A DNA stretch of 63,966 nt, filler included, from Malassezia furfur (lineage: Eukaryota): NCBI GenBank assembly GCA_052055015.1. It is 3 parts of 3 records of this genome, joined end to end, with 100 filler letters (N's around TTAATTAATTAA, not from the genome) between each part and the next. Parts side by side here need not be neighbours in the genome. Positions count along the whole stretch, not along the records: positions 1 to 24,890 come from JBQJIT010000138.1; positions 24,991 to 49,815 come from JBQJIT010000139.1; positions 49,916 to 63,966 come from JBQJIT010000294.1. One strand, given 5' to 3'. A program made the translations under genes and the position numbers. Numbering within the stretch: position 1 is the stretch's first letter; each line of letters begins with the position of its first letter. The notes beneath the pieces are model-generated. The model made no database searches and had not been told where the DNA came from. It was given only the letters and a program-made list of their open reading frames with translations. Positions 1,910 through 63,966 of the stretch are shown here, piece after piece.

Positions 1910-3605
1910 TCAAGCGCCGGCAGCGCGACTGATGGGCCGCGCAGGCGCACCAGCGGCACGGCTCAGCGGCCGCGACGCGGGGCGCTTGGTGCCTGGCGCA
2001 CCCGCTGTGGGGGCTGCGTGCGCCGCATGCTCGGCAGGGCGCATGCGCGCCGGCTGCTTGTTGTTCTCCTTGGCGCTGTCCAGCTGCTCCTGCAGGTAGT
2101 CGACGAACCGCACGCCGTCCATGAGGAAGGGCATATCGTGCTCGGCTTCCCATGCAGGGATCACCCGAAGCAGCTCGTGCTCCACCTTGGGCTTCTGGAT
2201 CTTGACGCGCTTGCGCATCTTTTCCTCGCGCAGCAACCGCCCCGGATCGCCGCGGTTGTTGCGCCCAAGGAGCCGCGAGCCGTCCTGCGCACTCTCCTCG
2301 AGGGCGCGCGCCTCGTTGCAGATCTCCTGATACCGCCCAATCAGCGCAAGCAGCGGCGCACGCTGCTCGAGCATCTCGCCGAGCCGCGCGCACATCTGCT
2401 CGTGCTGCGCAAGGATCGCATCGTAGTCAAACGTCGTGTCCGATTCGGCGTCGGGCAGCTCAAGGAAGTAGGCGGGGAAGAGCGTGTGCCGCTCCGCCTC
2501 GGACATGAACAGCGCATCCCACTGCTCCCAGATCTGTTCGCGCGTCTTGGCGATAAAGAGTGTCATGTGCTGCGACTTGAGCGCGCGCATCTTGTCGAGT
2601 TCCTCTTTGTACTGGGGTCAGTGGTGGGGACAGACGTACCACGTGCACGACCTCGAGCGTGCTTCCCCGGTGATCCAGCACAAACGCATCCATCTCGGCC
2701 TCGGGCACATCGAAGCGCATCCACAGCTCGCACAGCTCGTCGTAGTACGTCTGGATGTTGGTCTCGCGCTGCGTCTTCTCCGCCTCGAGCGCGGCGCGCT
2801 TCGCGTCGCACTGTGCAAGCACGTCGTCCGTCGGCTGCAGCAACGGCGCAGCAGGGCCGTCGGCACTCGGAGCGGGCGCCTCGCTCGGGACAAACTCGCC
2901 ACGGAACGCACCGTCCTGGAGCACGGGGCGCTGCTGGGTATACCGCAAGAGCGCCGCATCCAGCGCGCCCTCCGCGCCGGGCGCCGCCTGCAGCGCCCCG
3001 TCGTCGGCGAGCGATACGGCGGGTAAGATATGCAGCTCGGCCCAGAGCTGCAATATCTCGGTAAACTGCGTCTCCATCTGCAGCTTGCGTGTGGTGTAGA
3101 GCTGCTGGACGTGCTGCCAGTGCTGCTCGAGCTGCGCGAGGCGCGCGGGCGTCACGTCCTCGTACGTGCCATGCGCAGGCCCGGGAACAGGCAGGGAGCC
3201 GCCGGCGCTCGACATACACGCGTCGAGTGTATGGATTTGGTCCATCACCAGCGTACACTGCTCGCGCTGCGCGGTGTAGGTGCGCTCGAGCCGCGCCTGC
3301 TCCTCCTCGAGCTGCGCGGCCTGCGCGAGCAGCGGCGTATCGGCCGCAGGGGTACTTTGTCGCTCTGTTCCCGTCGCTGCGAGCAGCTGTGCAATCGCGC
3401 GCTCGCGCTCTGCACACTGCTCAGCGACGCGCGCGACGTCCGCCTGGACGACGCGGAGTTGTGCGTGGACAGCATCGTGGATACACGTCTTCAACGAAGC
3501 CATCGCTTTCTCAAGCTCGGCAGGTGGACTTCCTAGCTGCGCATGAAGCGCCGCTAGTTCGGCGCTCGATGCATCGATCAACGCGCTCAGCGTTGAGGCG
3601 TCCAT
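1910..3605 (-). CDS. ASE1: Ase1/PRC1/MAP65 spindle midzone microtubule bundler; one intron 2612-2639 (28 nt); frame continues past the TGA to 1730
   Basis: MAP65 core motifs (ELCELWMRFDVP, IWEQWDALFMS, EESAQDGSRLLGR...LLREEKMRKRV, WEAEHDMPFLMDG). A GTACGT...CTGAC-CCCAG intron joins ORFs 2460..3800 and 1910..2590 in frame. Confidence 0.85.
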
Positions 3606-3727
3606 CGTGCGCCGCGATGGTCGTGGGCGCCGTGTTGCTTTCGCACGTGCCGCGCGCGCGTCACCAACACTATCACGTGATATACGCGTCGCGCGCGTCC
3701 GGGATGCGTGGGCGGCTGCAAGCGACG
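3606..3727. promoter_or_regulatory. Bidirectional ASE1 / NUD1-like promoter with TCACGTGA E-box and ACGCGT (MCB-like) site
   Basis: TCACGTGA at 3673-3680, ACGCGT at 3684-3689 and further CGCG runs within a 122-nt divergent gap. Confidence 0.5.
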
Positions 3728-6262
3728 ATGGCGTCCGAGGAGGGCACGGTGATCCACCGCTCGGACGTGTCGACGCTCCCGCCCATGTTCCAGCCGGCAT
3801 GGAAAGCGTCGCCAGCGAAGGGGCGTGAGCGGCTCAATGCGATCGGCGGCGACATGTTCTCCCCGATCAAGCTCCAGCAAATGTTTCAGTCGCCCAGCAA
3901 CAGCGTGCGGCAGCCGAGCGCGGGCAAGGGAGCTGGCGCGGGTCCGCTGCGTGCGGGGCGCACCGGCGTACCCACCACGTCGTCTTCGACCCCGCTTGCA
4001 CCGCGTGAGGTCCGCCGCGTATCGCGCGACGCGCCGCCGCCGTCGACGCCCGGCGGACCCCATGTGCCACTGCGCCTCTTCAACGTTCAGTACGACACGC
4101 GCGTTCGCAGCGGACTCGAGCAGCTCGTGGAAGAGCATGATACCCACGCCGCGGACGCCTCGCACGCCACGGACGCGAGTACGCTGCAGCACATGCGCCA
4201 GAGCAAGCGGCTGCGTCGGCACTCCAAGCCGCCGGCGTCGCCCGAGGCCGCAGCATGGCACGCGGATGCGCCCGAGGCGCCCACACCATCGGCTGCGCCT
4301 GCTGCACGACAGCGTGTCCCGCTCGCATACCGCAGCACCAACACGCCGGCCGATACGCCGCCGTCGCTGCCGCGCTCCATCCTCAAGAGCAAGCCCGAGT
4401 CGCTGGGGCGCACGCCGTCGCGGTCGATCAGCTTTGCGGACGAGCGCGGCGCGCAGATGCGCGGCGGCGATGCACATGCGACGCCGCGCGCGACGCCGCG
4501 CGTGGCGTCCGTGTCATCTGCGCACGTCACACCGCGCACCGCGCGCCTCGACACGGTGCTGGCCGAGCTCGAGGAGCTGAACGTGACGCACGACACGCCG
4601 CGGCCTGCGCGTGCGCGCCCACTGAGCGCTGCGCGTACGTATGATGCGCTGGACACGTCGACGCCGCGGGCTGCGCGCACAATCGACGCAGACCGCTCGG
4701 CGGTGAGCGGTGCGTCGTTCCGGCTGACGCGCGAGCGGCTCTTGGAGCTGCTCACGGATGCGGCGCCGTGGGAGCCCGACTGGGCGCGTCTCGCGCGCGT
4801 CGACCTGCGTGCGCGGCGCCTCGAGTCGTGCATCGGGCTGGAAGACTATGTGCCGCACGTCGAGGAGCTCTGGATCGACCACAACCGCGTGGCGTTTGCG
4901 ACGGGCGTGCCGCCGTCGGTGCGCACGCTCACTGCGTCGCACAACTGCTTCTCGGAGCTCGCGTCGTTTGCGCACCTGCGCCGCCTCGAGGTGCTCGATG
5001 TGAGCGCGAACGAGCTGACGTCGCTCGCGGCGCTGGCGGATCTGCCTGCCCTTGCGGAGCTGCGTGCGTCGCACAACCAGCTCACGAGCCTGCACGGGCT
5101 CGAGCAGCTCACGCGCCTCGAGTGCGTCGACGTGCGCGACAATATGCTCGGCGGCGCACTGGCGCTCGGTGCGCTGCACTGGCCGCGCATCACCACGCTG
5201 CGCGTCGCGCGCAATGCGCTCACGCGCCTCGAAGGCCTCGCGACGCTCGCGACGCTCGAGACACTCGACGTCGAGGACAATGCGCTGACGCGCCTCGGCG
5301 TGCCGCTCGCGCGCCTGCACACCCTCCGGGTGAGTGGCAACGCGGCGCTGCACACGCTCGACATTGCACGCGCGCCGCAACTGCGCACGCTGTACGCAGA
5401 CCGGTGCAGCTTGGCGCGTGTCGACGGCGTCGAGGACGCCGCGGCACTCGAGCGCTGGTCGCTGCGGCAGCAGCACGTGCGCCTCGCCGTGCCGCTCGCG
5501 AACCCGGCGTCGCTCGCGCGCCTGTTCTTGTCCGGCAATGCGCTGACGGATGCCGAGGTGCTGGGCGCGCGCGCGCCGCGCCTCGTCTACCTCGAGCTCG
5601 CGGGGTGCCAGCTGACGAACGTGCCGCGCCGCCTGCCGCGCCAGACACCCGTGCTGCGCACGCTCAACCTCGACCACAACCCGCTCGCCGCGCCGCCGCC
5701 GCTCGCGTCGTGGCCGCGGCTCAAGCGGCTGAGCGTCGTGGGATGCCGCGTGCCGCGGCTCGAGGCGGTGGTGCACGCCATCGACGGCCACGACGCCCTG
5801 TGCGTGCTCGACGTGCGCATGAACCCATGCACACTCGGGCTCTACCCGCCGGTGCTGCTGCCCGTGCCGGCCGGCGCCGCGGACGACGAAGTGCTGCCGC
5901 CCGTGCCGCACCCATCCATCGCGCAGCCCGACACCGAGGCGGCGCTCGACGCGGCGCTCGCGGCGCGGCGTGCTGCGGCGCAGGCGCTTGCGGACCGCTC
6001 GCAGTTCCACAAGCGCACCATGCTCCTGGCGCCCGAGCCGACCGACGACGTGCGCGAGCAGTCTGGGCGGCGCGCTGCGGCGCTGTTTGCCGCGGCCGAC
6101 GAGCGGTTCGTCGCCACGCTCCCGCCCAAGATCGCAACGCAGCGCGCCGTGTACCGCGGCCTGTGCGGGATGGCGTGTGCGTCGCTCACGTGGCTCGACG
6201 GCCTCGAGATTGCGGATGCCGATGTGGCGCGCGCGGCGCGCAATGTACACAGAACACGGTAG
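3728..6262 (+). CDS. Leucine-rich-repeat spindle pole body scaffold, Nud1/Cdc11-like
   Basis: Ser/Pro-rich N-terminus with [11 protein letters not shown] and [11 protein letters not shown] motifs, followed by a long LRR array ([39 protein letters not shown]) and an LRR cap (LTWLDG). Confidence 0.7.
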
Positions 6263-6264
6263 GA

Positions 6265-7085
6265 CTACGTAATGCGACGCAGCGCGCGCTCCACGAGCCG
6301 GTCGAGCATCGTGGAGCTCAACACGCCGTCGCTGCCCGACGCCGCGTCCAGGCGCTGGAACTGGCCGAGGATCGAGCGGTAGACGTACTTGCCGACCATG
6401 TCGAACTCGACGTTCACCGCGTCGCCCACGCGCTTCGTCGGCAACACAATGTGCTCCTGCGTGTGTGGGATGAGCATCACGGTGAAGTCGACCGTCTCGG
6501 TCGTGGGGATCACGTCGTCGGGCGCCGTGAGCGCACCGCCGTTCGGCGGCGAGACGTCGATGAGCGTCAACGATGTGCCGTCGAGCGTCACAAAGCCCTT
6601 GGGCACAAGGTAGGGCGACAGCGTCGAAGGCAGCGGCAGCGTATCGACACCAGGGCGCGGCGCGTCGTACTGCAGCCGCAGCGTCAGCGTCAGCGCCGAC
6701 TCGTTCGGCTCCATCGCCACCAGGCGCGCGATGGTATCGACGTGGCCCTGCACGATGTGGCCACCGAACCGCGTGTGCGAGGACATGGCGCGCTCGCAGT
6801 TGACGCGCGAGCCAGGCGCCAGGTCGCCCAGATTGCTGCGGAAAAGCGTCTCGGGCGCCAAGTCCACACGGAACCAGCCCGCCGACGCGTCAAAGTGCGT
6901 CACCGTAAGACACACACCGTTCACCGCAATGCTGTCGCCGGTATGACAGTCATCCAGGATCGACGCCACGTCGCCAATCGTCACGGCGTACGAGCCGCTC
7001 TCGGCATCGTGCTGCGTCACGTCCGTCACTCGCCCAATCGTCTCGACTGCGTCAGTGCGCCGCACGTACCCAGGCCCGTGAACAT
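6265..7085 (-). CDS. RIB5: Riboflavin synthase; intron 7047-7069 (23 nt)
   Basis: Splicing restores the invariant N-terminus MFTGLVETIG. Lumazine-binding repeats: [46 protein letters not shown]. Confidence 0.95.
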
Positions 7086-7119: not shown

Positions 7120-7633
7120 ATGCCGCGCATCCGCACGACGCAGACGCGGCCGCCGCCCGAGGGGTTCGAGGAGATCGAGCCGATCCTCGAGGAGTATGAG
7201 ACCAAGATGCGCGACGCGGAGAACGAGACCCACGAGGGGAAACGCAAGGCAGAATCCGTGTGGCCGATTATGCGCATTACGCACATGCGCTCGCGCTACA
7301 TCTACGATCTTTTCTACAAACGCGAGGCCATCTCGCGCGAGCTGTACGAGTGGCTGCTCGAGCAAAAGTATGCGGACGCCGCGTACGTATCGTGTCTCAC
7401 GCAGCCTCATTGCGAAATGGAAGCGGTCGGGCTACGAAAAGCTGTGCTGCGTGCGCTGCATCCAGGCACGGGTACGTGGCACTGCTCACGCAGGACATGA
7501 ATTACGAGGGGTCGACGTGCATTTGCCGCGTGCCCAAGGCACAGCTGCGACCAGGCACGTTTGTAGAATGCGTGTATTGCGGTGCGTACGCAACACTGAC
7601 GCAGGGTGTCGCGGGTGCAGCTCGGCGGATTAG
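7120..7633 (+). CDS. BUD31: Splicing factor Bud31/Cwc14 (G10 family); introns 7383-7404, 7472-7493, 7582-7604 (22, 22, 23 nt)
   Basis: Spliced protein reads MPRIRTT...[32 protein letters not shown]...[20 protein letters not shown]...CICRVPK...[14 protein letters not shown], the G10 Cys-rich signature. Confidence 0.95.
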
Positions 7634-13675: not shown

Positions 13676-14675
13676 ATGGCCGTGACGGGGTAGGTGGAAC
13701 GACTCACGCAGAACGGCGCGCATCCCGACGTTCGGCCCGAACGCGCTCGGATCGGTGGCCACCCATCTGCAGACGCAGCACGATGCACAACCCATGGGCC
13801 CCTGGCGTCTGCGGTTCCGCCCGTTCCGCACCGTGCGCGGCTCTCACTCCGCGGAGCATACCAAGGGCTTGCGCTCCGACGTACCCGACGAGTCGCGCCG
13901 GCAGCGGCGCGTCATGTGGGAGATGACGGATGCCGCACACCCACAAGCCGTGTTTCTTCTGTTTGAGGATGCCGCAATGCCGACGCGTGCCGAGATCCAC
14001 GGCGACCAGCAACCCAAAAGCAGCCGATGGCACAGCCATGTTGTGAGCACCGACTTTGCGACGCTGCTCCGGCATACGAATTTGCCCGGTCCGCTGGGGA
14101 CTCCGCCGGGCACTCTGGGACCCGGCGCATGGATCCAGCGCGGGGCCAACATTGCGTTTGACGGCATGTCCTTCCACATCCGCCTCGCGCAGCCGCATGC
14201 GACGCTGCTTGGCACCGTGTCGGAGCAGAACGAGTGCATCTTGAACATCGGCAATGTGATTGTGGGTGCAGACCGCGTCGTCGGTGGGATCGTCGAGATC
14301 CAGTACACACCGCTCGAGCGCCTCGCGCCCAACTCGACGCTGCTGGGCTCGCTGCTGATGGAGCTGCTGCCACCGCACCTCGTGCCTCTCCTGACACCCG
14401 TGCCTGCTCTGCCGCACGAGTCGCTTATGTTGCCAAGTACGGCGTCGCTACGGACGGTGCTGGCACCGTCCCAACTCGAAGAGGTCGTGCCGGCTAGTAT
14501 GGACGAATGGCGGCACCCGGCGCAGTCACAACCATCGATGAATCCCGATGCGTTCCCTGCATGGGAACCGGAGCCGGGCTATGTACCCGACGCGCTTGGA
14601 TGGAGCGGCGTCGAGGCACGGCGCCGCATGGCGTTTGTCTACCTAACCATGCTGCGCTCTGAAGGCCTCGCATAG
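13676..14675 (+). CDS. MED20: Mediator subunit Med20/Srb2-like; intron 13690-13711 (22 nt)
   Basis: Spliced start MAVTGTARIP. The pattern WRLRFRPF...WIQRGANIAFDG...LNIGNV...GGIVEIQYTP resembles Med20. Confidence 0.6.
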
Positions 14676-14948
14676 GCTCTGGGTGCGCATCTTCCACGCT
14701 ATGGATCGCAATGATGTGCACCTCTACGTACCCAGGCGTGCGCTGTACCCGTCCATAGCGCGACAACGATACCCACGCGACAGCGGCCCTTGCGATCACC
14801 GCGCACATGGCGAGCACGCTCCGCGAGCCCCTTGCGCCGCGCGCCGCGTCCTGTTCACGTGCGGTGGCCCAATTAAACCGCGGCGCGCCTCCACCGCAGC
14901 ACGCGTGCCAGCTCGTAGTCGGACGCGCGCCTCGCTCTCCCTTCAGCG

Positions 14949-16795
14949 ATGAGCACGGGAAGTGCTCGCGCTGGACGCGCCGTCCTCCTCAAAGGACCGA
15001 CGCTCAACTCGAAAGTCTTCTTCACAGCGCTGCCAGACCGCTTCGAGGTACGTGACGTGGGCTGATCCAGGACTTGCTCGCCAAGGCGCGCGAACTTTTC
15101 CCAGTCCCGGCAGACTGCACACCGCAGCTGTTTGTCGCATGCCCCTCGTCGGTGGGCACAGCAAGTAGCGAGCAGCGCGGCGCCATCCTTCTTGCTGATG
15201 CGATGCCGTTTCTGCGCGACCGCGAGCTGCTGACGCTCCGGTGGACCGCGACGGATTCGCCCGCCCGCGAGGCCAATGCGCGTGTGCAGTGGGATCCCAA
15301 GCTACCGGCACTCGAGAGCACCCGCGCGGCAAACATGGCGCCTGTATGGCGTGGTCCCCAGGCGCGTGCCGCACACGTCGCGCGCGTTCTGGAGCGCGAG
15401 CGAAACTACGCCGAGGAGTGGACGGACAATCTGCGCAAGCCGATCGTCACCCGCCCCGAGCCCAGTATGTTTGGCAAGCCGCTTGCCACGCAGAAGCGCG
15501 AGCCCATGTCTCCGCCGCCAAGCTCGCCGACAGCCTCGCCCGAGCATCCGGCAGAAGTAAGCACGGCCGAGGCACCGGCGTCGCCGACGCCGCAGCGCAC
15601 ACAGGATGTGTCGCCGGCGCCGCTCGTATGGAAAGCGCCTGAAGGGCCCACGACGCCGCCGCATGCCGACCTCGATCCGATGCAGGATATGCCGGGCCTG
15701 TCGCGCCTGGGCGCGCTGTGTGCACGCCTCAACCCGTTTGGTCGAGGCACACCGCAAAAAGACACGCCGATGTCGCAGACCCCGGCGCCGACCACTGCCG
15801 TGCTGACGCCCAAGATGCCCGAGAGCACGGCCAAGCCCGATGTGGCAAAGGAGGCGCGACAAGCGCCGAAATCGCGCACCAGGCCCCTCGCGATCCCCGA
15901 CATGGCTCCTATGGAGGGTGCGGCGGCCTACGAAGTGGTCACGCAGGTGCTGGCTGCTGTGCGTGAACACCCATGTGCGATGCAGTTCCGCTCGCCGATG
16001 CCGTATGAGCTCCGGCGGTTCTGTGAGCGCCGCGGACGTGTGCTCGATCTGAACACCATTGCGGCGCGGGTAGCCAAGCGCGATTTCGGACATACACCGC
16101 TCGTGCGCTTTGCGGAAGAACTCGCGACCTATCTCGATAATGTGGTCGCGTTCTACGGCGAGCACAGCTACCAGACGCATGCGGCGATGGGTCTTGGCAA
16201 GTTTGCTGAGACGCTTCTCAAAGAGCTCTCGCGCCAGAAGCCGTCGGAGAAGCGTAGTGCGCCGCGGACCGACAATGCCTCGGACGACGCAGCGGCCGAG
16301 GACAAGAGCGAGGCGCCTGAGACGCCGGTACCTGCGTCTGGTGCCGCAGCCGAGGACAAGCAGATGACGAGCGACAAAGAGACGGCCCCCGCCAAGGAGC
16401 CGACCGAGCGACCGGCGCCTGCCGCGTCCGCACCGCCGGCCAAGCGCGATGCGCCGGCCAAGCGCGACACTTCGGCCCCCACGAGGGCGCGTGCAGCGAC
16501 CAAGCCGAGCAGCACCGATGTCTTTGACGACCTGGCGCCCGCCAAGCCGGCTGGCAGGAAGGGTGCACGTGCCAAGCCGGCGGCCAAACCGGCGGCGTCC
16601 GATGCCTCGAGCGCCACGCCTGCGCCCGCTGCCGAGGCGCCGGCAGAGGACGCTGCGGCTAAGAAGACAGGTGCGTTGGTGCCGTCAAGTGACGCGGGAA
16701 CCGACCTCCTGCCCGCCGGCGGCAAGCGTCGTGCCACGGCGGCGGCGCAGCCCGTAGCGAAGCGCACACGGCGTTCGTCGCGTGTAAAGACGTAG
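14949..16795 (+). CDS. Hypothetical protein with a degenerate bromodomain; intron 15048-15070 (23 nt)
   Basis: A 33-codon first exon splices in frame to ORF 15074..16795. Bromodomain-like helices VLAAVREHPCAMQFRSP...LDLNTIAARV...FAEELATYLDNVVAFYG; basic C-terminus (KRTRRSSR). Confidence 0.7.
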
Positions 16796-41029: not shown

Positions 41030-41270
41030 CTACATATCGAGCGTGTACGTGTTCTTCTCGAACTGGGTGAGGCGGCGCACGTACCTCGGCCTCGAGCAGC
41101 CCCTGCAGCGTTTCGACCATGCTGGAATTGACAAGCACGTGCGTCTCGTCCAGATCCATCACGATGCATGGCGTATGCTCATCGATGGCAAGAATCATCT
41201 GCTTCACCGCAACATCACTGTGTGAGCACAGCACGTACCAGCTGAACAGTGTGCCCGCATAGGCGCGCAT
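41030..41270 (-). CDS. TFB5: TFIIH subunit Tfb5/p8; introns 41218-41238 and 41063-41084
   Basis: Spliced MRAYAGTLFSCDVAVKQMILAIDE...DLDETHVLV...EFEKNTY. Confidence 0.92.
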
Positions 41271-41327
41271 CGACGGGGGTGGACGGGCTGAGTCAGCAGC
41301 GTACCCCGCAACTGGCTTCGCACCAGG

Positions 41328-45636: not shown

Positions 45637-47167
45637 ATGGGTTTGGTGGACGTCGAGGCGCTCGTGGCCTACGACCTAACGCATGTGCAGTGTACGTGAG
45701 CCGCTGATGCAGACCATGCACACGATCCGTGGGGCCCTTGGTGGGCATTTGTCACGCTATCGCCCGTGCTGGTGCTGACCGTGTACGTCGCGGTCTTTTT
45801 GCACCGCCGCGAGATGACGTACCTCAATGTGCTCGTCGGTCAGGTGCTGTGCGAGGTGATCAACGGCAAGCTCAAGCGCCGTATCCAGCAGCACCGCCCG
45901 ACAAATGTGCTTGGCTCGGGGTACGGCATGCCGTCGTCGCACTCGCAGTTCTGCGGTTTCTTTGCCGCGTTCTGGGTGCTGCACCTTGTCGCGCACGCGC
46001 CGCAGCGCCGCGGCACGTACGCACGCAGCTATGCGGCACGCGTCGCCGATCGTACCGTGGCGCTCACGCTGCTCGTTGGACTCGCAGCCCTCACGTGCTA
46101 CTCGCGGTAGGTCGCGCGACTCACTCAGGCACTATCTCGTGTACCACACGCCAGCGCAGATCGGGGTCGGCGCTTCGCTCGGCGTGGTGCTCGGCACGGC
46201 GTACTACCTGGCCACGGAGGCCATCCCCCGTAGCGCGCCGGCGCACTCGGCGCTTGGCCGCGCGCGCCGTGCGTTTTACACGAGCCGCGTGAGCCGTGCG
46301 CTGCGCCTGCGCGACGCCTGGACCGTCTGGGCGGACGGCAGCGAGGACCACACGTATACGCGGTGGCGCGCCGAGCTCACCACCGATCCGCGGGCGGGCG
46401 CCGTGGCCCTGCGCGGCGATGCGCCTGCCCACGTCAGCATGATGCTGCGTGCGCTCCAAGAGGCCGACCAGTGCGACGCGGTGCCGACTGCCTTCTCGGT
46501 CGGGTGTGTGATTGCGGCGGCCGGCGCGTCGCTGAGGGAGCCCGGAACGCCGCTCGATGCGGTGCCCGTGCTTGAGCCGTACGCGCTGTTCACCGGCTTC
46601 TCGCGCGAGCTGCCCGGCAACACGCACGCCGAAGAGTGTGCCCTTGAGAAGCTGGTGCGGTACTGCGCGCGCACGCCCGAGGTGCGCAGTGCGCAGGCCG
46701 CTGCGGATGCCGCGCACAATACGCCGCTTCAGCTGCTCCTGTACACGACCATGGAGCCGTGCTCGCAGCGTCTGAGCGGCAACATGGCGTGTGTGGAGCG
46801 CATTCTGCGCTTCAACACGCGCCCGCCCGTGACGACCGCCGCGTGGCTGCTGCGTGCGAATGTGCCGCTTGCGAGCCATGGTGCGGCGCCCGTGCGTGCC
46901 GACACCACACTGCGTCCGCTGCAGATCGCGCTCGTGGTCCAGGGCGTGCGCGAGCCGGACGACTTTGTACTGTGCGAGGGCCAGAACCGGCTGCGCGACG
47001 CGGGCATCGACGTGGTCACTGCGTCGCCCGCCGCGGCGCCCGGCGTGCTCGGCCTCACGCTGCCGAGCCTGTCTTCGATCGCGATCCCGGTGCGTGCGTC
47101 GAACGCAACCGACTGGCTCGAAGACGCGTGCCTGCGTATGGCCAAAAAGGGACATGCTACAAAGTAG
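45637..47167 (+). CDS. Fusion protein: N-terminal dolichyl-pyrophosphate phosphatase (CAX4/DOLPP1, PAP2 family) plus C-terminal Rib2-type zinc deaminase; introns 45692-45712 and 46107-46128; about 495 aa
   Basis: PAP2 motifs KRRIQQHRP, GMPSSHSQF and SRHYLVYHTPAQ (the last restored by intron 2), then without a stop AFSVGCVI, TGFSRELPGNTHAEECAL, YTTMEPCSQRLSGNMAC, GVREPDDFV. Confidence 0.85.
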
Positions 47168-47179: not shown

Positions 47180-48515
47180 CTAGCGCGGACGCCGGCGCGG
47201 GCCCAGGACCAGTGGGCCGTTCCATGCCAGTGTGCTGCTCTCGCGCAACGGTGCGGCTGCCGGGGCGCGTGCCGCATGTGCCGGGGCGCGCGGCGCAGCC
47301 GCCAGCACGCCGCCCGGCATCGGAAAGTCGTCGTCGTCGTCGTCGCCCCACGTGCCCGAAACGGGCGGCACAGGTGCTGGCGACGAGGAGCCCCCGGCGC
47401 GCATGCGCTTCACAGTTCGCGCCGGAGAGCTCGAGAGCTCCTCGGCGTCGCTTGTGCGCGCCTCGAGCTCGGCCAGACGCTTGCGGTACGTCGCCTCGGT
47501 CTGCGACTGCTGCGACTGCTGCGCACGAGCGGCGCGGTACTTTTCCTGGGCGCGCCGCACGGCCGCCTGCAGCTCGCGCATTTGGTCTGCCATGTGCTGA
47601 TTGCGCGCGCGGATCGCTGTAAGGGCCGCCGTAGCATCGGCCGCCTGCTCCTCAGCCTGCTGAATGCGTGCAGCGGCCTCCGCCTCGCGCTTCTCGGCAG
47701 CCTCTTCGCGGAGCGCCGCGCGGCGCACAGCCTCGACGCTCGCAGCCTTGGCGGAGGCGACGGCGTCCTGCATCCGTGTCTGTGCTGCGTCATGTTCGCG
47801 CTCGAGCGCCGCCTCACGCGCGGCCAATGCCTCGGCGCGTTCCTCGACGGCGGCGGCGTCGCGCGCCGCGTGTTTTTGCCGCTGGCGCACGGCGTGTCGG
47901 TCCTTGCACACGGCACGGGCCTCGTCGTCGAGTGCACGCCGTGCCTCGCGCAGTGCGTCTTCGGCTTCGCGATTGCGGACCGCATGCTGTTGCGTCTGGG
48001 TATAGGCCTTGGCAAGCGTCAGCGACACGCCCTCGACGTGTGTGACCATGTCGTGGAGCGCGTCGAGGACACGCTGCATGGCCTCGGCTGCCTTGGTGTC
48101 GCACACAGCGTTGCGGCGGAGTGCCTCGGTGACGCGAAGCTGCACGCGTCCCATCGGCGCTGCGCGAAGACCGTGCGCGGCCATGGCATAGGACTGCATC
48201 GCGGTGACCAAATCGCATGCGGCTTCCAACACAGGCTGTTCCGGGTCACGCACGTCTGTGTGGTGCGCCGCGACGTACTGGTGAAAGTCGGACGCGTCCG
48301 CAGGCCACAGGGGAAGCACCTCGGCGGGTGTGGCCGGTGCCTTGCACAGCGGACACCCGCCCTTGAGCGCGTCATGGCAGCGCGACGCGAGCCAGCTGCG
48401 CACGCATGGCGCGTGGAAGACGTGCCCTGGGTGAGTGGTGCGCCAACGTACCGCACGGCAGCGCCGCAGGCCGGGCCTCGGGCGTGTACGGCTCGAGGCA
48501 GATCCCACACGCCAT
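47180..48515 (-). CDS. RING-H2 plus coiled-coil putative E3 ligase; intron 48427-48451 (25 nt)
   Basis: Spliced N-terminus MACGICLEPY...LPCGHVFHAPCVRSW...CPLCK followed by a long coiled coil. Confidence 0.85.
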
Positions 48516-48611: not shown

Positions 48612-49675
48612 ATGCCGTTGAGTGCGGAGAAGCGACGGCGCTCGCCGCGAGAGAAGCGCAGCTGGGACTATGTCGTGCGCAGCGGCCTCGCCGGCGGGAT
48701 TGCTGGATGTGCGGTAGGTCGTCGACTAACACGCAGGCCAAGACCACGATTGCGCCGCTCGACCGCGTCAAAATTCTGTTCCAGGCGGCGAACCCCGACT
48801 ACCAAAAATACAGCGGGCGATGGCTCGGCGTGATTGACGCGGGGCGCAACATCGTCAAGCAGCAGGGTGTCGTGGGCCTATTTCAAGGGCACAGCGCAAC
48901 GTTGCTCCGCATCTTTCCGTACGCGGCGATCAAGTACATGGCGTACGACGCACTGCACCTGGCGCTCATGCCGACGCCGCGCGACGAGACGAGCGCGCGC
49001 CTGTTCTTGGCCGGTTCCATGTCCGGTGTGCTGTCCGTCTTTCTCACGTATCCGCTCGAGCTGATCCGCGTGCGCCTCGCATTTGATACACGCACTTATC
49101 CGCACCACAAAAACCTCCGCAACGTGATCGACACCATTTATCACGAGGGTGCCACGACCGTTGCGGCCGACGGGCGCGTCGCCGAAAGCCCTGCATCGAT
49201 GCTGCTGAACCGCGTCCCGCTGCTCAAGTTCTACCGCGGGTTTTCTGCGACGGTGCTCGGCATGATTCCGTACGCTGGCACCTCCTTCCTCGTGTTTGGG
49301 CGGTGCAAGACGGCGCTGTACCACGGTCTTCTCCACAAGGAGACCACAGGCGAGGTACTGCCGGGCTACGAGCACGTCGCGCCGCTCTGGAACGTGAACC
49401 GCACCGTGGTCGACCTGACCGCCGGCGCCTTGGCGGGCGCCATTTCCCAGACGGCCTCATACCCTCTCGAAGTCGTTCGCCGGCGGCAGCAGATTGGCGG
49501 CATATTGCGCCCGTCCAGCATCCTCACGCTGCGCGAGACGATCCGCAGCATTTACCGGACGCACGGGTGGCGCGGCTTCTACGTCGGGCTGTCGATTGGG
49601 TATATCAAGGTGGTGCCGATGACCGCCATCAGCTTTGCGGTGTGGTCCGCAATGAAACGCCGGCTGGGTATCTAG
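48612..49675 (+). CDS. LEU5: Mitochondrial coenzyme A carrier (Leu5/SLC25A16-like); intron 48714-48736 (23 nt)
   Basis: [72 protein letters not shown]. Confidence 0.9.
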
Positions 49676-49815: not shown

Positions 49816-49915
49816 NNNNNNNNNNNNNNNNNNNNNNNNNNNNNNNNNNNNNNNNNNNNTTAATTAATTAANNNNNNNNNNNNNNNNNNNNNNNNNNNNN
49901 NNNNNNNNNNNNNNN
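49816..49915. other. Artificial contig spacer N44-TTAATTAATTAA-N44
   Basis: TTAATTAATTAA at 49860-49871 flanked by Ns; same layout as the first spacer. Confidence 0.97.
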
Positions 49916-54965: not shown

Positions 54966-55521
54966 ATGCGCGCGAGCCTCGGTATGCTGGTTTCCCTGGG
55001 TGCGCTGCGTAGCGTGCGGGTCATGTCGCCCTTTGCACATGCTCTGCCCAGTTCTGCGCCTGCGGCGAAGGTCTACGTGGCGGCTACCATGCCGCTTCTC
55101 ACGGTCCATGTCCCGCATTTCCTGCGCCAGTGGGCCGCACAGGTCACTACGACGCTTTCGCATACCCTCGGAAACGACCCGCATGATGGTTCGGATGCCG
55201 GCGCGTTGGCTTCCGCGTGCGCCGGCCCCACACTCCCCGCCATGCCTGTGTCGGAAGGCCCCGAGACCTGGGACGGTCTGCTCCTCGCCGCACCCAAGAA
55301 GAAGGTATCGCACTCGCGTAAGGCGATGCGCTCGGCCAACAAGGGCCTGAAGGACCGCATCAGTACGTATAAACCCTATCGACATGCGACTGACCCTGCT
55401 AGACCTAGTGCACTGCCCCGGCTGTGCGCGCCCCAAGCTACAACACCATATCTGTGAGCACTGCTTTGGCGAGTTCTCGCGGAGCCTCAAGCAGAAAAAC
55501 ACGAGTGTGCCGTCTGCGTAA
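54966..55521 (+). CDS. MRPL32: Mitochondrial ribosomal protein bL32m; intron 55363-55402 (40 nt)
   Basis: LLAAPKKKVSHSRKAMRSANKGLKDRINLVHCPGCARPKLQHHICEHC zinc knuckle after a long presequence; exact start uncertain. Confidence 0.9.
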
Positions 55522-55776: not shown

Positions 55777-57266
55777 ATGTCCACCCACCTGGTCCGCGCG
55801 CTTCGCGCACAGGCCGCATCGCGTGCAGTGCGACACACTCTCACGCGTACCCCCTATGTAACTGAAGCACCTCGGAGTCGCTCAACCCACTCGAGAGCCA
55901 AAACAAACTCTGGTTTACTTCCTGCACTCGCCCCGGCCGCTGTTTCACGTACGTATGCAACAGCAGCCGACCCCGTGCAAGACCGTGCAGCACAAGCCCA
56001 ACTCCGACGTACGTCTTTCACTCACAGCAGGTCTTGTTCCGCCGTCGAAACGGTATCCTGTCCCCCAGGACGTGGCCGAATCTATTGTGACTCTCTTGCT
56101 GAGTACTTCTGCGGAAGGCATCGACCGAAACACGGAGGGACAAGTATACCAAGGTGCGCGGTTTGCACACTGACGCAGTCGTGGACAACCACCGCCTCCC
56201 CCCTTCAGCCCTGCGCAAGCTTGCTGCGGCGATTCTGCAACTGAGCCGCGATGCACGCCGGAACCAAGTGGTTGGTCAACTCTACGCGCTTGCGCATCGC
56301 CGCGGCGATGATGACGCAGGCTACTCCTGGGCAACAATGGTGCTCGAAGGCCTAATCCAAGGCGCAACCGACCCAAGCCGTGCCGCTGATGAAGCCATGG
56401 AACTTTATGCGACGCTGGCCCGCAAAGGACATCCCCAGGCCCTGTTTGGTATGGGCCGCGTCCTTTTAGCCCAGATCGAGGCAACACCGGACACTGCCGC
56501 GAGCCGCATGCCCCGTGTAATTGAGCTATGGGAGCGCGCAGGGAAGAGTGGCATGCCTGATGCATGGTTCGAGCTCGGCCGGATGTACCAAGGCACACCG
56601 TATCTGGATCGCGACACCGACCGTATGCAGGAGTGTTTCGAGCAGGGAGCGCGTGCGGGCAGCACACAATGCTGCTACGCACTTGGAGTGCAGCATGCCG
56701 CACGGGCCGACGAGCTGCGCGAGCAGAATAACCACAAAGCAGCGCACGAAGCGATCACGCTGTCGAACCGCTATTTCTTGCAGGCGGCCCAGCATGGACA
56801 TGCACCAAGCGCCTACAACATGGGCCTGCGCTACCTCCTCACCGATGTAGCTGATGCATCGTCAGCGACAGAAGAGCAAAAGCGCGCGCACCAGTCGCAG
56901 TGGGGTGTGGTCCCTGACGACCGCAGCGCGCGCGAATGGTTCGCGGCCGCAGCAGGCAAAAGTACGTGATATGCTCACCCAGATTTCATGCCTGCAATGA
57001 TGAACTATGGACATATGCTCATGAATGCGCGCGGATCGGCGGAGGCGACGCCGACGCCCGACGACCTCGCGACTGCCCAGCGCGTGTACCGCCGTGTGCT
57101 AGCGCTGGGAATGGCCGCACAGCAGCTGCGCTCGCGCGAGACGACACCGCGTGCTGCAGATGACGACACTCCTCAGGTGATGGAGCACATGGTCAGTGAG
57201 GCCCGGCGTGCGCTGCAGACGCTCGATGCGCGCCTTGGGAACGGCGCGTCGCAGACGGTCTTCTAA
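55777..57266 (+). CDS. Probable mitochondrial Sel1-repeat protein; introns 56009-56030 (or 56009-56027), 56154-56178, 56962-56982
   Basis: Presequence-like N-terminus; SLR motifs GHPQALFGMG, GMPDAWFELGRMY, GHAPSAYNMGLRY, AREWFAAAA. Confidence 0.8.
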
Positions 57267-57508: not shown

Positions 57509-58321
57509 ATGGCCTCGGTCCAACAGATTGTGCTGCACCCGTACATTTCGCAGTTGGTAAGTATCAAGCGGCACGCCGGAAGACATGCTTACACTCTGTA
57601 CAGCTCAAGTTCTGGAGCACGACCGTCGGTCGTGACAAGACGTCGCGTTCGGTCCAGTACCTGTCGCGCTTTTTGGCGTGGTACACACTGACCCGCGGTG
57701 CGCCTAAAGAAACGGTCGCGCGCTGGTCTTCGATCAAGTCGAACATCGGCTTGAGCCGCAAGCGTACGTATTTTATGCTCATGTCCAGTTTTCCGTATTG
57801 GCAAGTTCCTGGAGCACTTCCAGGCCGCGCTCAAGGCGACGAGCACCGCGGACCCCGTGCTGATGATCACCGCCGTGGGTCGCCAGCTTGGTTACGCGTT
57901 CTACCTGATCCTCGATGCGCTGCAGTGGATGCAGGGCGCCAAGGCCGTGCGCTTCGAGAAGGAGACGGCTCAGAAGATCTCTAAGAACGCGGCGCGCTTC
58001 TGGCTCATCGGTCTGACCTTCTCGCTGATCAGCGGCGTGTACAAGTCGCAACAGCTTGCACAGCGCCTCAAGTTTGCGCAGCGCCCGCGTGCTACGGCCG
58101 AGAAGGAGGCTGAGCGCCGTGTCGAGCTGCACCAGCTTGCGGCGGACACCAAGGCGGTGCGCCTGCAGATGCTGCAGGACGCATGCGACATTGTGAACCC
58201 CGGTACGAGCACCGGCTGGTTCAGCTTCAACGAGGGCGTGATCGGTGCGGCGGGTACCCTCAGTTCACTGCTGGGTGCGCGCTCGCAATGGATCAAGGTC
58301 AACGGCGGCGCGAAGAAGTAG
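57509..58321 (+). CDS. PEX11: Peroxisomal biogenesis factor Pex11; introns 57557-57603 (47 nt) and 57764-57788 (25 nt)
   Basis: HPYISQLLKFWSTTVGRDKTSRSVQYLSRFLAW...SRKLFRIGKFLEH...DACDIVNP...GAAGTLSSLLG. Confidence 0.93.
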
Positions 58322-58429: not shown

Positions 58430-60674
58430 CTAGACGAGTTCCTCGGTCTCCTCGAGGATCTCTTCCATCCACTCTTGCACCTCTTCGGTGCTCTCCTTCT
58501 GGAGCTGCTCGGCGCTGAGCGCCGCAGGGTCCGTCTTGTACACCTGCTTCGCTTCCTCGAGCTTTTCGCGGTTGCGCTCGCGCCACTCCTTCCACTCCTG
58601 GACCATGCGCTGGTACACCTCGCGGTGCGCAAGAGCCTGGCTGCTCTCCTCCGCCTCGTCCTCCTGGTCGAAAATCTTGGAGTACTCGCGGAGGTTGCGG
58701 CGCACGCGCTTCTGGTCCTCCTTGCTGAGCAGCGTCTTGGGCCGCGGGCGCCACAGAATCTGCTTGAACTGCTCGAGGACGTGCTTCTGCAGCTCCACAC
58801 CGTGGAAGTTCCAGATCGCGTACCCGTGCTCGGTGGAGCGGCGCCACAGGCTCGCGCTGGTGGTCACGTAGCGCCCACTCGGGTCCCACTCGATATCAGT
58901 CATGCTGTAGTGCTCGCCGCTGCCGATCAGCTTCACCTCCTCGAGCACGTCCGGGTTGTTGGCGTTCTGGCGCGCCTCGATGTTGAAGTCGACGTCGTAC
59001 CACTCCAGCTCGAACTTTTGCGTGGATCCGAGGGTGGCGGCCAGCAGGTGGCGGCCACGCGGCGACCAGAAGAGCGAGTTGCACGCCTTGTTGTCGAACG
59101 CCTTGAGCAGGCGGAAGTTGCCACGCGGGTGCAGGTGGTAGAAGTTGAGCTGCGTCTTGAGCGTCACACCGGGCGCCACGACGCCAAAGTTGGGGTCGTT
59201 GGTGGAGATCACCGCAAAGTGGCTGCCCTGCGGCTCCCAGGCAAAGGCGAGCACCGGGTCCTTCAGCTCCACGACCTCCACCGGGAAGTCCTTCTCGCGC
59301 ATGCGGAACAGCTCAAAGTTGCAAAAGACCGTCTTTTTGGTCTTGGTCTGGCGGTCCACCTTGACACACAGGTAGTCGCCCTGAGGGTGCCAGTGCAGTT
59401 TGCAGTCGGCCACGTTGAACAGGTTTTTGGAACGCAGCACCTCGCGCGTCGGCACACTCATCACCGTCACACGCGCCGGCTGGTTCGCGACCTCGGGCTG
59501 CCAGTAGCACAGCATATTGTCGCGCGGCTTCTTAAAGCCCTTGGGCAGGTTCGGGTTCTTGCCTTCGTTCCACACCTCGAGCGCCTCCTTATCCTTGTCG
59601 CCCAGCGGGCACCACTCAAAGTCGACGACGCCGTCAATGCGGATGCTCTTTTGGTCGAGCAAGCCCATGCTCGGCACCTGGTAGACGCTGATCGCTTTGC
59701 CGGGCGAAACCTTGGCACAGTACTTGCTGTCGCCGCTCCACTTCAGGAAGGGCCAACTAAAGCCCTTGACTTGCTGGCCAGTCTCGGTGATCGTCTCCTC
59801 CTGCTGGATGGGGAAGGTACGCAGCAGGTGGCCGGTGCGCACTTCCCACACCGCGACGCGGTTCCCCTCGTCTTCAGGCGCGAAGAACTGCGGGCCCTGC
59901 GGGGCATTTTCAGGGACCTGGATCGGCTCAGCAGACCACGTCACCATGTATTTCTCGTCCGGGCTAAAGTCGACGAGGCGCACACCAGGGTGGGGGTATC
60001 GCATGATCCGCTCCCAGGCGGACCCACCCCAGAGCGCGATGCCTTGGAGGTGGAACGTGGCCAGGTAGGTGCCGAGCGGCGACCACTGCACGTACGACTC
60101 GGTCCAGCGTGTCCGTGTGTGCACAATCTCGGGGTTCGATGCGCGGTTGTGCCACGCAATCTGCACCTCATCGCCGCAGCAGATCGCCAGCTGGTCGCGG
60201 CCCGACGGGTCCGCGAGCCAGGAGCGCAGGTGGCCGCGCTGCTTATATGGCTCCTCCTCCGGCTCGACGTATGTCTCGTCCATGTTGGTCAGGCGCTCAA
60301 TGTCGCTGAAGCGGTTCACCAGGAAGTGGTGCTTCTTGTCAAAGGCGTAGTTGTCCATGGTGCGGATCGCGTGCGCGGCCTCGTCCGCATTGGCAAGCTC
60401 CATGAGCATGTAGCTGCGGGTCAGATGCGCTTCCCACGTACCCCTTCGACTCGCCATTATCGCCGTACGAGATGTGCATGCACTCCAGCGGCACATCGAT
60501 TTCTGCCTGGGTCCGGAAGCGCTTCTGGATCGTCTCGAACAGCTTCTGCTGCTTTGCCGACGTGATGACCGGCACGCCGTTGATGATAATCACATTCTCG
60601 AGACTATCATCGAACGGCACATCATACTTGGCCTCGATGTCCGAGTAGTCAATGTCGTCTAGCTCGCGGTCCAT
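58430..60674 (-). CDS. PRT1: Translation initiation factor eIF3b; intron 60414-60441 (28 nt)
   Basis: N-terminal RRM, then WD-like propeller: HLRSWLADPSGRDQ, WTESYVQWSPLGTYL, IEWDPSGRY, FKQILWRPRP. Confidence 0.95.
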
Positions 60675-60809: not shown

Positions 60810-63622
60810 ATGGGCAAGCACGACAAGAAGTCGGGCAAAGGGTACGTTGACCGCACCGCTCACACCACAGCCGTCTCGACAAGTTCTACTGGCTTGCCAA
60901 GTGTGTATACACACGTGAAACACTGACCGCAGAGAGCAGGGCTATCGTGCCCGATCCGCGTTCAAGCTCGTGCAGCTGAACAAGAAGTACAAATTTTTGG
61001 AGGATGCGCACTGCTGTATCGATTTGTGTGCGGCGCCCGGTGGCTGGCTTCAGGTGGCATCGAAGCACATGCCTCCGAATAGTCTGATTGTCGGTACGTA
61101 CGGTGTGCGCGCCACTGACCCTAGGTGTCGACCTGGTCCCCATCAAGCCGATCCCCCGCTGTATCACGTTTGCCGAGGACATCAACTCGTACAAGTGCCG
61201 TGACCAGCTCCGCGAGGACCTCAAGGACTGGCGCGCAGATGTTGTGCTGCACGACGGTGCACCAAACGTCGGTACCGCATGGGTTCAGGATGCGTACGCC
61301 CAGTCGGAGCTGACGCTCCAAGCGCTCAAACTCGCCGTCGAGTTCCTGGCGCCGGGCGGCACGTTTGTTACCAAAGTATTCCGCTCGAAGGACTACAACA
61401 ATCTTGTTTGGGTCTTTAACCAGCTCTTCCACCATGTCGAGGCCACCAAGCCGCCGTCGTCGCGCAATGTCTCTGCTGAGATTTTCGTGGTGTGCCAGCG
61501 CTTCAAGAACATGAAGCGCATCGACCCCAAGTTCCTCGACCCCAAGTATGTGTTCAAGGAGCTTGACCCGACGTCGGCGTCCAAGGAGATGTCGGGCGCC
61601 AGCTCGCACAACCTGCTTGAAAACGTCGTGAACCCCGAAAAGGCACGGCGCAAGCGCGAGGGATACGAGGAAGGCAACTATACCCTGTACAAGACGATTG
61701 CCGCCGCGGAATATGTGCGCTGCGCCGACGCGATCGCGGCGCTCGGCACGTACAACCGCATCACCTTTGACTCGGAAGAGGACCAGGAACTGCTCCGCGA
61801 CCCGCTCACCACCGAAGACATCCGCGCGAACTGCGAGGATCTCAAGGTGCTGGGTCGTGGCGATTTTTCGTCGCTGATCAAGTGGCGCAAGGCGCTGCGC
61901 GAGAAACTCGGTTTGGACCGCAACAAGAAGCAACAGGAGCAGGACGCTGAGGCGACGCAGACCATCGAGGTCGAGCCCTTGAATGAGGAAGAGGCGATGG
62001 ATGAGGAGCTCGCGCGCCTCAACGAAGAATCTACGAAGCGTGCGCGCAAGGAACGCCGCCGCCGCAACGAGGCGCGCGCCAAGGCGCTGCAGAAACTGCA
62101 GCTGAACATGTCGACCCCGATGGAGCTCGGCGAGGACTGGACCGACGAGGCACTCCACGGGGGTGCCGAGACCTTCTCGCTGGATGCGCTCGAGCGCCAC
62201 GGCCCGCGCCGTGGCCATGCCGAGCTGTTGGATGCCGAGGATGCGGCGAGCGACGAGGCCTCCGAAGCCGACGTGGCGTCGGCAGAGGAAGACGCCTCTG
62301 AGGTCGACTCGGATGACGACGACAAGGAGCGACGCATCCGTGAGCTCGAGTCGGGCATGGACTCGATGTACGAGCAGTACCAGCACCATCTCCAGGAGCG
62401 CGACGCCAAGTTCCGCGCGAAGGAGGCGCGACGCAAGTCATCCAAGTACGAAGAGTGGGGCGGTATCGATGCAGACAAGAAGAGCGACGAGAGCGATGCC
62501 GACTCGGATGTCAACGTCGAGAAGGGCTACGACTCGGTGAACCGGCGCAAGTTTGCGGAAGAAACGTACGATTCGGATGACGCCGAGGACGACGAAGACG
62601 AGCGTGCCGAGCTCGCCGAGACGCAACCAGCGCCACAGGCGACGCGCGCCAGCGCCCCCAAGCGCGCACGCGGCACGTCGCAGACATTGCTCACGCCGCT
62701 CGAGTCGGATGCGGAGCTGAAGCAGCGCCAGAGTGCTGAGTCGGCGATGTGGTACGACAACCCCATCTTCCAGGACATGCTGCCGCTCGAGGCGCTCGTG
62801 CCGAATCGCAAGACAGAGGAAAGCACGCCGGAGCTCGATGAAGACGAAGCAATGGACGAAGACGAAGACGAGGACGAGGACGAGGAGAGCGAAACGATGT
62901 ACGACGACGACATCGAAGCCGTGCCCTCTGGCTTTGCCGCCAACGTGCCAGATGGCGCGTGGGATGTGCATGATGAAGACCCCGACGCGGCGAAGCGCGA
63001 AAAGATTGCGCGGCATGGCCTGCATACCGCCGAGGCTGTGTCGATGGCCCATGCGCTCGTGAACCGGCAGATGACCAAGTCGGACCTGGTCGATCAGGGC
63101 TTTTCGAAGCACAACTTCAACGACAAGTCGGGCCTGCCGCAATGGTTCTTGGATGACGAGAATGAGCATTACCGCACCAATATCCCTGTCTCCAAGGAGG
63201 CCGTCGAGGCGCTGCGCGCGCGGCAGCGGGCGCTGGATGCACGCCCCATCAAGAAGATTGCGGAGGCCAAGGCGCGCAAGAAGCACCGTGCTGCAATGCG
63301 TCTAGAAAAGGCACAGAAGCGCGCCGAGGCCATCAATGAGAACGCTGACCTGACCGAGCGCGAAAAGGCCGAGAACATCAACAAGATCATGGCCAAGTCG
63401 ATGGCCAAGAAGGCGGGTAGCGAAAAGAAGCCGCCGCAGCTCGTTGTGGCGCGCGGTGCGAACCGCGGGATCAAGGGCCGGCCGAAGGGTACCAAGGGCC
63501 GCTACCGCATGGTCGATCCGCGCATGAAGAAGGAGCTGCGTGCTCAAAAGCGCCGCGACCAGCGCGAGGGCAAGAAGCGCAGCTCCGGGCACAAGCAGCG
63601 GCGCATCCCCAAGGGCTACTGA
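60810..63622 (+). CDS. SPB1: AdoMet-dependent 25S rRNA methyltransferase Spb1; introns 60842-60870, 60901-60932, 61094-61124
   Basis: [63 protein letters not shown]-terminal [12 protein letters not shown]. Confidence 0.96.
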
Positions 63623-63759
63623 TTGTAAGACATAGGCCATTACACCATCCTGTGCGGCACACGACAAACTTAGGGGGCTGCCTAGGGTGCCTAGGGCAAG
63701 CTTTTGGGGGTAAGGAGCCTCATGCTCCTCTACGCGACTACCTAAAGGGGGACCGGCGT

Positions 63760-63966
63760 TTACTCCTCGTCGGCCTCCTCCTCCTCCTGGTCGTAGGAGA
63801 CGTTGAAGAACCTGGTGTGTTAGTATTGGGGCATGGCGCCGGTATACGTACTTGATCTCGAAGCCAGGCTTGGACGTGGCAACCACACGGAGCCAGTCAC
63901 GGAGCTCAGCACGCTTCAGGAACTTCTTGGTGAGGTACTTGAGGTAGCGCTTCGAGAAGGGGATCG
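63760..63966 (-). CDS. RPL22: 60S ribosomal protein eL22 (3' part only); intron 63812-63851 (40 nt)
   Basis: [16 protein letters not shown]...[12 protein letters not shown]...[19 protein letters not shown]. Confidence 0.93.

Follow-up and report, generated by a model that had tools for sequence, protein, structure and literature searches.

Splicing of very short introns poses the puzzle of how a spliceosome that in humans needs about 45-50 nucleotides (nt) from donor to branch can work on 10-16 nt, a puzzle raised mainly in ciliates, nucleomorphs and parasites. Nucleomorph introns fall in the same size class as the introns analysed here, which interrupt genes throughout a 63,966-nt stretch of the Malassezia furfur genome (the window; three contigs joined through artificial linkers at 24891-24990 and 49816-49915, with a GC content of 66%). 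Yarrowia lipolytica, Giardia and Trichomonas have a fixed branch-to-AG spacing and no pyrimidine tract, the Yarrowia introns being long; M. furfur resembles them in that branch and acceptor form one block, to which it adds a minimal donor-to-branch distance. Published work is cited below by PMC number for the passages available to us. Stentor coeruleus keeps U1 and has introns of 15-16 nt, sharing with M. furfur the GU-AG ends, a branch A that precedes the 3' end by five bases, a U2-type parts list and the steric problem, whereas its introns are AU-rich, near-fixed in length and without a branch consensus, with the branch A at 10-11 (PMC9505925); those of M. furfur are GC-rich, with strong donor and branch consensus sequences, a branch A at position 16 at the earliest and lengths from 21 to more than 40 nt. 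A 2026 paper on introns below 30 nt treats ciliates, microsporidia, dicyemids and myxozoans and, in the part available, never names Malassezia; the size class is the same in Paramecium, Nyctotherus, microsporidia, dicyemids and myxozoans (myxozoan median 22 bp), but the myxozoan and dicyemid splice motifs are reduced (PMC13644364), while those of M. furfur are strong.

Within the genus, very short introns are mentioned in a review (PMC7426719), the curated annotation of M. sympodialis holds 5350 introns with a mean of 30 bp, 5271 (99%) of them supported by RNA sequencing (RNA-seq; PMC5389616), and M. restricta, with a median of 30 bp (PMC9241646), was annotated with the minimum intron lowered to 15-20 (PMC6473144); automated M. 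globosa annotations give an intron size of 76-79 bp. The preliminary description of this window had seen the size class as mainly one of ciliates, the chlorarachniophyte nucleomorph and microsporidia, a view that has to be qualified given these reports for Malassezia (PMC5389616, PMC9241646). As far as available, the M. sympodialis and M. restricta reports offer annotation statistics without mode, floor, branch geometry or mechanism, next to a motif-based median of 23 and mean of 25 here, although Figure S8 of PMC5389616 is an intron size distribution and may show the peak. Nothing on the floor or a mechanism was found in the available passages of PMC8476143, PMC3560662, PMC5654937, PMC7385547 and PMC2396436, and a wider full-text search, with most subscription papers outside its scope, returned no 21-nt mode, branch floor or splicing mechanism for Malassezia. 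The short average is known; the sharp limit of 16 nt from donor to branch, and what it means for the mechanism, appear to be undescribed, and the curated annotation files would contain the sizes.

Our evidence on splicing is comparative DNA analysis; the intron scans demand a consensus donor and branch, and branch points are predicted from motifs. With the cut-off set at 16 bits, a weight-matrix scan of the window yielded 51 candidates (null counts run from 2.0 to 4.8 for cut-offs from 17 down to 15 bits), from which we rejected 14679-14731 (53 nt; a weak match) as well as 48256-48278 and 61084-61101, one being nested antisense to a real intron and one having lost its AG in the homeolog. The 48 retained introns span 21-41 nt, with 12, 10 and 9 at 21, 22 and 23 nt (31/48), and a further one at 41625-41646, below the weight-matrix cut-off, is shown by Pfam continuity, bringing the window to about 49; the preliminary count of 51, with 11, 12 and 9 in these classes, is revised accordingly. 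The near-fixed layout proposed there holds: donor hexamers are GTACGT in 35, GTAGGT in six and GTGCGT in three of the 48, the branch A lies at -6 in 35, and the longest T run is a single base in 39, so that there is no polypyrimidine tract. The proposed 16-nt minimum is also upheld, since the branch A never lies before intron position 16. At the level of motif, with branch chemistry predicted, the branch sites read CT-V-A-Y, complementary to the canonical GUAGUA of U2; of the 21-mers, 81% have a purine at position 12 and 65% a G at position 7, as would be expected if these bases paired with U2 and with either U1 or U6, respectively. Two introns deviate at their ends: 42581-42606 is a GC-AG intron whose GC donor is kept in both subgenomes, and 33170-33197 ends in AAG in the window copy and CAG in the homeolog.

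The own genome assembly (13.7 Mb, 1856 contigs) holds two subgenomes with a mutual identity of 83-89%, which fits the doubled M. furfur hybrid assemblies of PMC4634964, and this permits comparison between homeologs. In contigs C6/C7 the GT/GC-AG ends are kept in both subgenome copies for 33/33 candidates, 14 of which differ in length by a non-multiple of three with zero gaps in the 60-column flanks, and intron middles are 65% identical versus 90.5% for the flanks. The main homeolog contig of the window, which DNA similarity searches missed, was located through a motif match; here the ends are kept in 28/29 candidates, with seven length changes that are not multiples of three and no flank gaps. 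Combined, 61/62 keep their ends, with 21 frame-shifting length changes and no flank gap. Moreover, a strict motif matches 36 times in the window, 25 times at 25 nt or less, against 1.1 and 0.2 in 30 Markov nulls; a plain longest open reading frame test was non-discriminating at the GC content of the window. Pfam models, scanned over 50 exon pieces (36 with a match), run on over the junctions in ASE1, thiamine pyrophosphokinase, PIG-S, an amidase, a RING finger and a complex I subunit, and the RIB5 (MFTGL/VETIG) and RTC4 (GY/YG) junctions read as had been proposed. Introns at the same positions occur in six metagenome contigs from other Malassezia-like fungi (L188-L193): they are 23-24 nt long in the two contigs whose BUD31 exon 1 is identical to that of M. 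sympodialis, and about 28-50 nt long in the others. The sympodialis-like contigs share the 21-24-nt layout, and in L189 BUD31 intron 1 is lost exactly.

Exon 1 of BUD31 (7120-7380) matches entries named Malassezia furfur and M. brasiliensis at 100% identity and those of other Malassezia at 83-92%. Once its three introns are removed, BUD31 gives a product of 148 aa, the best among ten variants scored (289.6 bits); alternative intron 3 ends of 19 and 50 nt scored 279.7 and 264.3 bits. The spliced protein aligns without gaps, at 70-87% identity, with 18/18 same-length homologs compared. Eight of the nine named Malassezia Bud31 entries compared are not 148 aa long and diverge from this product at or just after the intron positions, in line with the mis-annotation that had been predicted. 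Together, null counts, homeologs and Pfam continuity bear out the proposal that a culturable fungus has spliceosomal introns of ultra-short length: on this comparative evidence we consider it practically certain that these are real introns with a length floor, and they occur genome-wide and are shared at least with sympodialis-like genomes. Their GT/GC-AG ends, which are under selection, and the restoration of conserved proteins upon their removal mark them as U2-type. The predicted introns of the window are listed with their evidence in brackets, where Pfam ranges are the model matches on the two sides of the junction.

2612-2639, minus: 28-nt intron, ASE1/MAP65 gene (weight matrix; Pfam 6-264 and 268-461 across the junction)
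7047-7069, minus: 23-nt intron, RIB5 (lumazine-binding) gene (weight matrix; position common to L190, L192, L193)
7383-7404, plus: 22-nt intron 1, BUD31 (variant scoring, Pfam scan, homolog alignment; precisely absent in L189)
7472-7493, plus: 22-nt intron 2, BUD31 (variant scoring, other Malassezia contigs, Pfam scan, homolog alignment)
7582-7604, plus: 23-nt intron 3, BUD31 (variant scoring, other Malassezia contigs, homolog alignment)
13690-13711, plus: 22-nt intron, gene with weak Med20 match (weight matrix; position common to L190, L192)
15048-15070, plus: 23-nt intron, unnamed gene (weight matrix; position common to L190; looks absent in L189, L192)
25075-25096, plus: 22-nt intron 1, complex I 21-kDa subunit gene (weight matrix)
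25238-25259, plus: 22-nt intron 2, same gene (Pfam 2-42 and 45-79)
25368-25402, plus: 35-nt intron 3, same gene (weight matrix)
25559-25586, plus: 28-nt intron 4, same gene (weight matrix)
25749-25787, minus: 39-nt intron, TPR protein gene (motif only)
29429-29454, plus: 26-nt intron, PIG-S gene (ends kept in homeolog)
30799-30819, plus: 21-nt in-frame intron, PIG-S gene (homeolog; Pfam 187-440 and 441-512)
31839-31859, plus: 21-nt intron, 26 nt in homeolog (homeolog)
32681-32704, minus: 24-nt intron (homeolog)
33094-33134, minus: 41-nt intron, Dabb-domain gene (homeolog)
33170-33197, minus: 28-nt intron ending AAG (homeolog 29 nt, CAG), Dabb-domain gene (homeolog)
33868-33888, minus: 21-nt intron, SIP1/Gemin2 gene (homeolog, Pfam scan)
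34168-34188, minus: 21-nt intron (26 nt in homeolog), SIP1/Gemin2 gene (homeolog)
34358-34379, minus: 22-nt intron, SIP1/Gemin2 gene (homeolog)
36143-36163, plus: 21-nt intron (22 nt in homeolog), mitochondrial carrier gene (homeolog, Pfam scan)
36341-36363, plus: 23-nt intron, same mitochondrial carrier gene (homeolog, Pfam scan)
37050-37072, minus: 23-nt intron (25 nt in homeolog), amidase gene (homeolog, Pfam scan)
37741-37761, minus: 21-nt intron with in-frame stop, amidase gene (weight matrix, homeolog)
37859-37879, minus: 21-nt intron, amidase gene (homeolog; Pfam 36-72 and 75-105)
39496-39518, minus: 23-nt intron, RTC4 gene (weight matrix, homeolog, Pfam scan)
40286-40306, plus: 21-nt intron 1, five-intron TPR protein gene (homeolog)
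40426-40448, plus: 23-nt intron 2 (24 nt in homeolog), same gene (homeolog)
40667-40690, plus: 24-nt intron 3, same gene (homeolog)
40759-40779, plus: 21-nt intron 4 (27 nt in homeolog), same gene (homeolog)
40839-40861, plus: 23-nt intron 5 (24 nt in homeolog), same gene (homeolog)
41063-41084, minus: 22-nt intron 2, TFB5 (homeolog)
41218-41238, minus: 21-nt intron 1, TFB5 (homeolog, Pfam scan)
41288-41304, minus: 17-nt intron-like motif upstream of the TFB5 start codon, non-coding (kept in homeolog)
41625-41646, plus: 22-nt intron, thiamine pyrophosphokinase gene (Pfam 3-48 and 50-104; below weight-matrix cut-off)
42077-42098, plus: 22-nt intron, thiamine pyrophosphokinase gene (homeolog)
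42581-42606, minus: 26-nt GC-AG intron (GC donor kept in homeolog)
45692-45712, plus: 21-nt intron, PAP2-family gene (weight matrix, homeolog)
46107-46128, plus: 22-nt intron, PAP2-family gene (homeolog)
48427-48451, minus: 25-nt intron within RING finger (homeolog; Pfam 2-21 and 23-44)
48714-48736, plus: 23-nt intron, mitochondrial carrier gene (homeolog)
55363-55402, plus: 40-nt intron (motif only)
56009-56030, plus: 22-nt intron (motif only)
56962-56982, plus: 21-nt intron with in-frame stop, Sel1/TPR-like gene (weight matrix)
57764-57788, plus: 25-nt intron, PEX11 gene (weight matrix, Pfam scan)
60414-60441, minus: 28-nt intron, eIF2A/eIF3b-type WD40 gene (weight matrix, Pfam scan)
60842-60870, plus: 29-nt intron upstream of the SPB1 FtsJ domain (motif only)
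61094-61124, plus: 31-nt intron, SPB1 gene (weight matrix, Pfam scan)
63812-63851, minus: 40-nt intron (motif only)

The genome-wide length check that had been called for reveals a wall at 21 nt. At 20-22 nt the motif matches 1004 times versus once in the reversed control, and a broader motif at 15-20 nt matches six times versus nine in controls, never at 19 or 20 nt; all 1004 matches are therefore of 21 or 22 nt. Across 462 kb, 60 branch A bases fall on position 16 and one on position 15, where chance would give about one per position. In a pooled set of 997 kb (178 sources that overlap and include both subgenomes and are therefore not independent; metagenome and mitochondrial sequences and 20 hand-picked loci excluded), the 516 candidates number 101, 99 and 83 at 21, 22 and 23 nt, none at 18-20 nt and three below 18, with the branch A at position 16 in 127, at 15 in three and at -6 in 322. 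The 496 motif-called candidates of up to 45 nt have a median of 23 and a mean of 25 nt, 54% being 23 nt or shorter. The homeologous partners of window 21-mers measure 21-27 nt in 11/11 cases and are never shorter. Matches of 17-18 nt in L189 and L190 look nested or unsupported and were rejected as introns. In the pooled set, introns of 24, 27, 30 and 33 nt number 55 versus 108.5 for neighbouring lengths, and a deficit of such multiples of three is known from Paramecium; yet the modal 21-mer is itself a multiple of three, with 55 of 85 frame-called 21-mers stop-free in frame, and in-frame stops are not significantly enriched in the multiple-of-three introns of this set (52/132 vs 72/241, p = 0.067). 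TFB5 (minus) and the thiamine pyrophosphokinase gene (plus) start head to head about 55 nt apart, and the gap holds the 17-nt motif at 41288-41304, which also contains TGACTCA, presumably an AP-1/Gcn4-type site.

Human splicing fails below a donor-to-branch distance of 44-47 nt, with the block at the A-to-B step (PMC11291888), and the human B complex keeps its donor helix (17 nt) 15 nm away from its branch helix (14 nt), about 52 nt in total (PMC6692369). The hard minimum in M. furfur likewise concerns donor-to-branch distance and not intron length, but at 16 nt it is about a third of the human value and cannot fill the human B-complex geometry. The preliminary description had attributed the difficulty to U1 and U2 hardly binding simultaneously, and had derived from it a modified assembly route. 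Crowding is part of the problem, since the human minimum is ascribed both to simultaneous binding of small nuclear ribonucleoproteins (snRNPs; PMC6692369) and to the A-to-B step; the bottleneck is thus probably B-complex geometry as much as crowding, and the modified route is one that we infer.

We favour, as moderately probable, ordinary U2-type splicing with a standard parts list along a compact sequential route. Introns would have shrunk against a lineage-specific minimum, with the branch A at 16 and the AG ending 5 nt further on, 21 nt in total, and deletions taking the branch A below 16 would be purged by selection. The ten 3' bases (purine-CT-V-A-C-N-CAG) would be read as a single block by SF1 and U2AF35, with U2AF65 acting as a bridge in view of the missing pyrimidine tract. 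U1 would stay on the donor for a short time only: with the branch at position 16, the donor and the zone upstream of the branch where U2 is anchored overlap. The donor would be passed late to the ACAGA box of U6 through short helices only, so that the stretched human-type B state would never be occupied. The 16 nt may comprise a donor helix of about 6-7 nt, a linker of 4-5 nt and a U2 branch helix of about 5 nt.

The loss of splicing factors that had been anticipated was not found, and none of the six early-recognition proteins tested is missing: U1-70K with an intact RRM, U1C, Luc7, SF1 and Slu7 are present, as are U2AF35, which we take to be identified by its two CCCH fingers around an RRM, and a U2AF65-like protein, which scores 250 bits where the full-length model has its cut-off at 310 and whose gene start lies off the contig. 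In a human route for short introns, SPF45 is reported to take the place of U2AF65 on truncated tracts; in M. furfur both U2AF subunits are present. Among the small nuclear RNAs (snRNAs), U2 with a canonical GUAGUA, U6 with a canonical ACAGAGA box, and U4 and U5, both above the Rfam cut-offs, fit the full-length Rfam models, U2 being recovered in one of two expected copies. An AACGGCC box lies upstream of the U2, U4, U5 and U6 genes (L011, L143, L144, L159, L009, L010), and in U2, U4 and U5 a TATA box comes next; the U2 and U5 genes share a downstream T run ending in ATGG, and the Sm sites appear to end in C where G is usual. The U1-70K, U1C and Luc7 loci (L044, L045, L128, L129, L141) themselves carry intron motifs of 23-32 nt.

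Several observations weigh against the favoured reading. RNA-seq support for such introns comes from M. sympodialis and not from this genome. A looser motif below 21 nt gives 193 matches versus 70 in controls, and of 31 inspected, 22 are nested in longer introns and nine are without an obvious upstream donor; atypical shorter introns could escape scans that require a consensus. The 17-mer at 41288-41304, kept in both subgenomes, is a possible exception to the floor and may be a 5' untranslated region intron, the tail of a longer intron or a promoter element. Since Stentor splices with the branch A at 10-11, the catalytic core as such sets no universal limit at 16 nt. Finally, U1 snRNA was not found by Rfam, by pattern searches of the genome or by Rfam scans of candidate loci, searches that were filtered and run on a fragmented assembly. 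Searches on the shared promoter box likewise returned only U2, U5, U4 and one protein-gene promoter. A single weak Rfam match (L097, 14.6 bits) was rejected, as it is without a 5' end and lies in coding-like sequence, and so was a conserved TATA-box candidate (L103/L106), which reads as the promoter of an opposite-strand protein gene, presumably enolase-like.

This absence, although U2, U4, U5 and U6 were found at once, is what a bold minority reading builds on, namely that U1 snRNA has been lost or changed beyond recognition and that U6 and U5 pick the donor directly, as in the U1-less alga Cyanidioschyzon. U1-70K, U1C and Luc7 would then have been kept around a dropped or rebuilt U1, and at thousands of 21-25-nt introns the donor would go directly to U6 beside U2 that is already in place, bypassing the canonical A and B complexes. 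Position +4 of the donor is C in 344/496 pooled candidates, although U6 keeps its canonical ACAGA box, and a C there mismatches the canonical U1 end. The loss of U1 proteins that would mark a U1-less, reduced spliceosome is not seen, however; the Rfam search scored 41/173 candidates and was silent in every control genome, the Rfam scans covered the pattern matches only in part (23/54; 37/56), the assembly lies in 1856 contigs with one U2 copy of two, and Stentor retains U1 despite its shorter introns (PMC9505925). We regard U1 loss as unlikely, and this direct donor handover as equally doubtful. The main rival, which we hold to be possible though tentative, keeps the normal order E, A, B, Bact in a machine physically compacted, via shortened or altered SF3a/SF3b, Brr2 contacts, B-specific proteins or branching factors, so that 16 nt have room for U1, U2 and, after them, the tri-snRNP. 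It accords with the presence of every early factor tested, with the non-overlap in base pairing of donor (1-6) and branch helix (11-17), with the altered Cwc25 and Isy1 proposed for Stentor (PMC9505925) and with floors that may vary by species, given 21-24 nt in sympodialis-like contigs versus 28-50 nt in others at the same positions; yet the 15-nm gap alone takes a linker of about 21 nt, more than the whole 16 nt (PMC6692369), and U2, U4, U5 and U6 fit full-length models. A reading of the segments as chance motifs, as frameshifts or as introns that are mostly retained we consider highly improbable: retention would often be tolerable because 55/85 frame-called 21-mers are in frame and stop-free, 3/51 weight-matrix candidates failed, and short microsporidian introns splice poorly (median about 25%; PMC13644364), but the null counts, the homeolog indel pattern, the exact loss in L189, Pfam continuity and the gap-free Bud31, a conserved splicing factor whose gene has three frameshifting introns, all argue against it.

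M. furfur offers more than 1000 natural introns at a one-base-sharp limit, in a culturable dikaryan that could serve for splicing tests on tiny introns; transformation and CRISPR methods are published for M. furfur, and gene knock-out tools for Malassezia. Being culturable, with natural introns at such a limit, it would make reporter shortening, suppressor screens and structures feasible, and a comparative series is at hand in some sister species, whose orthologous introns are longer. On the practical side, the public proteomes of Malassezia are damaged, as the Bud31 entries illustrate, and gene finding based on reading frames cannot see 21-mers that are in frame and free of stops.

Two minor features of the window may be added. 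Both linkers consist of a 12-base all-frame stop word flanked by N runs. At 45637-47167, removal of two introns places PAP2-like and cytidine-deaminase-like domains in a single 495-aa frame, which is either a fusion or two adjacent genes.

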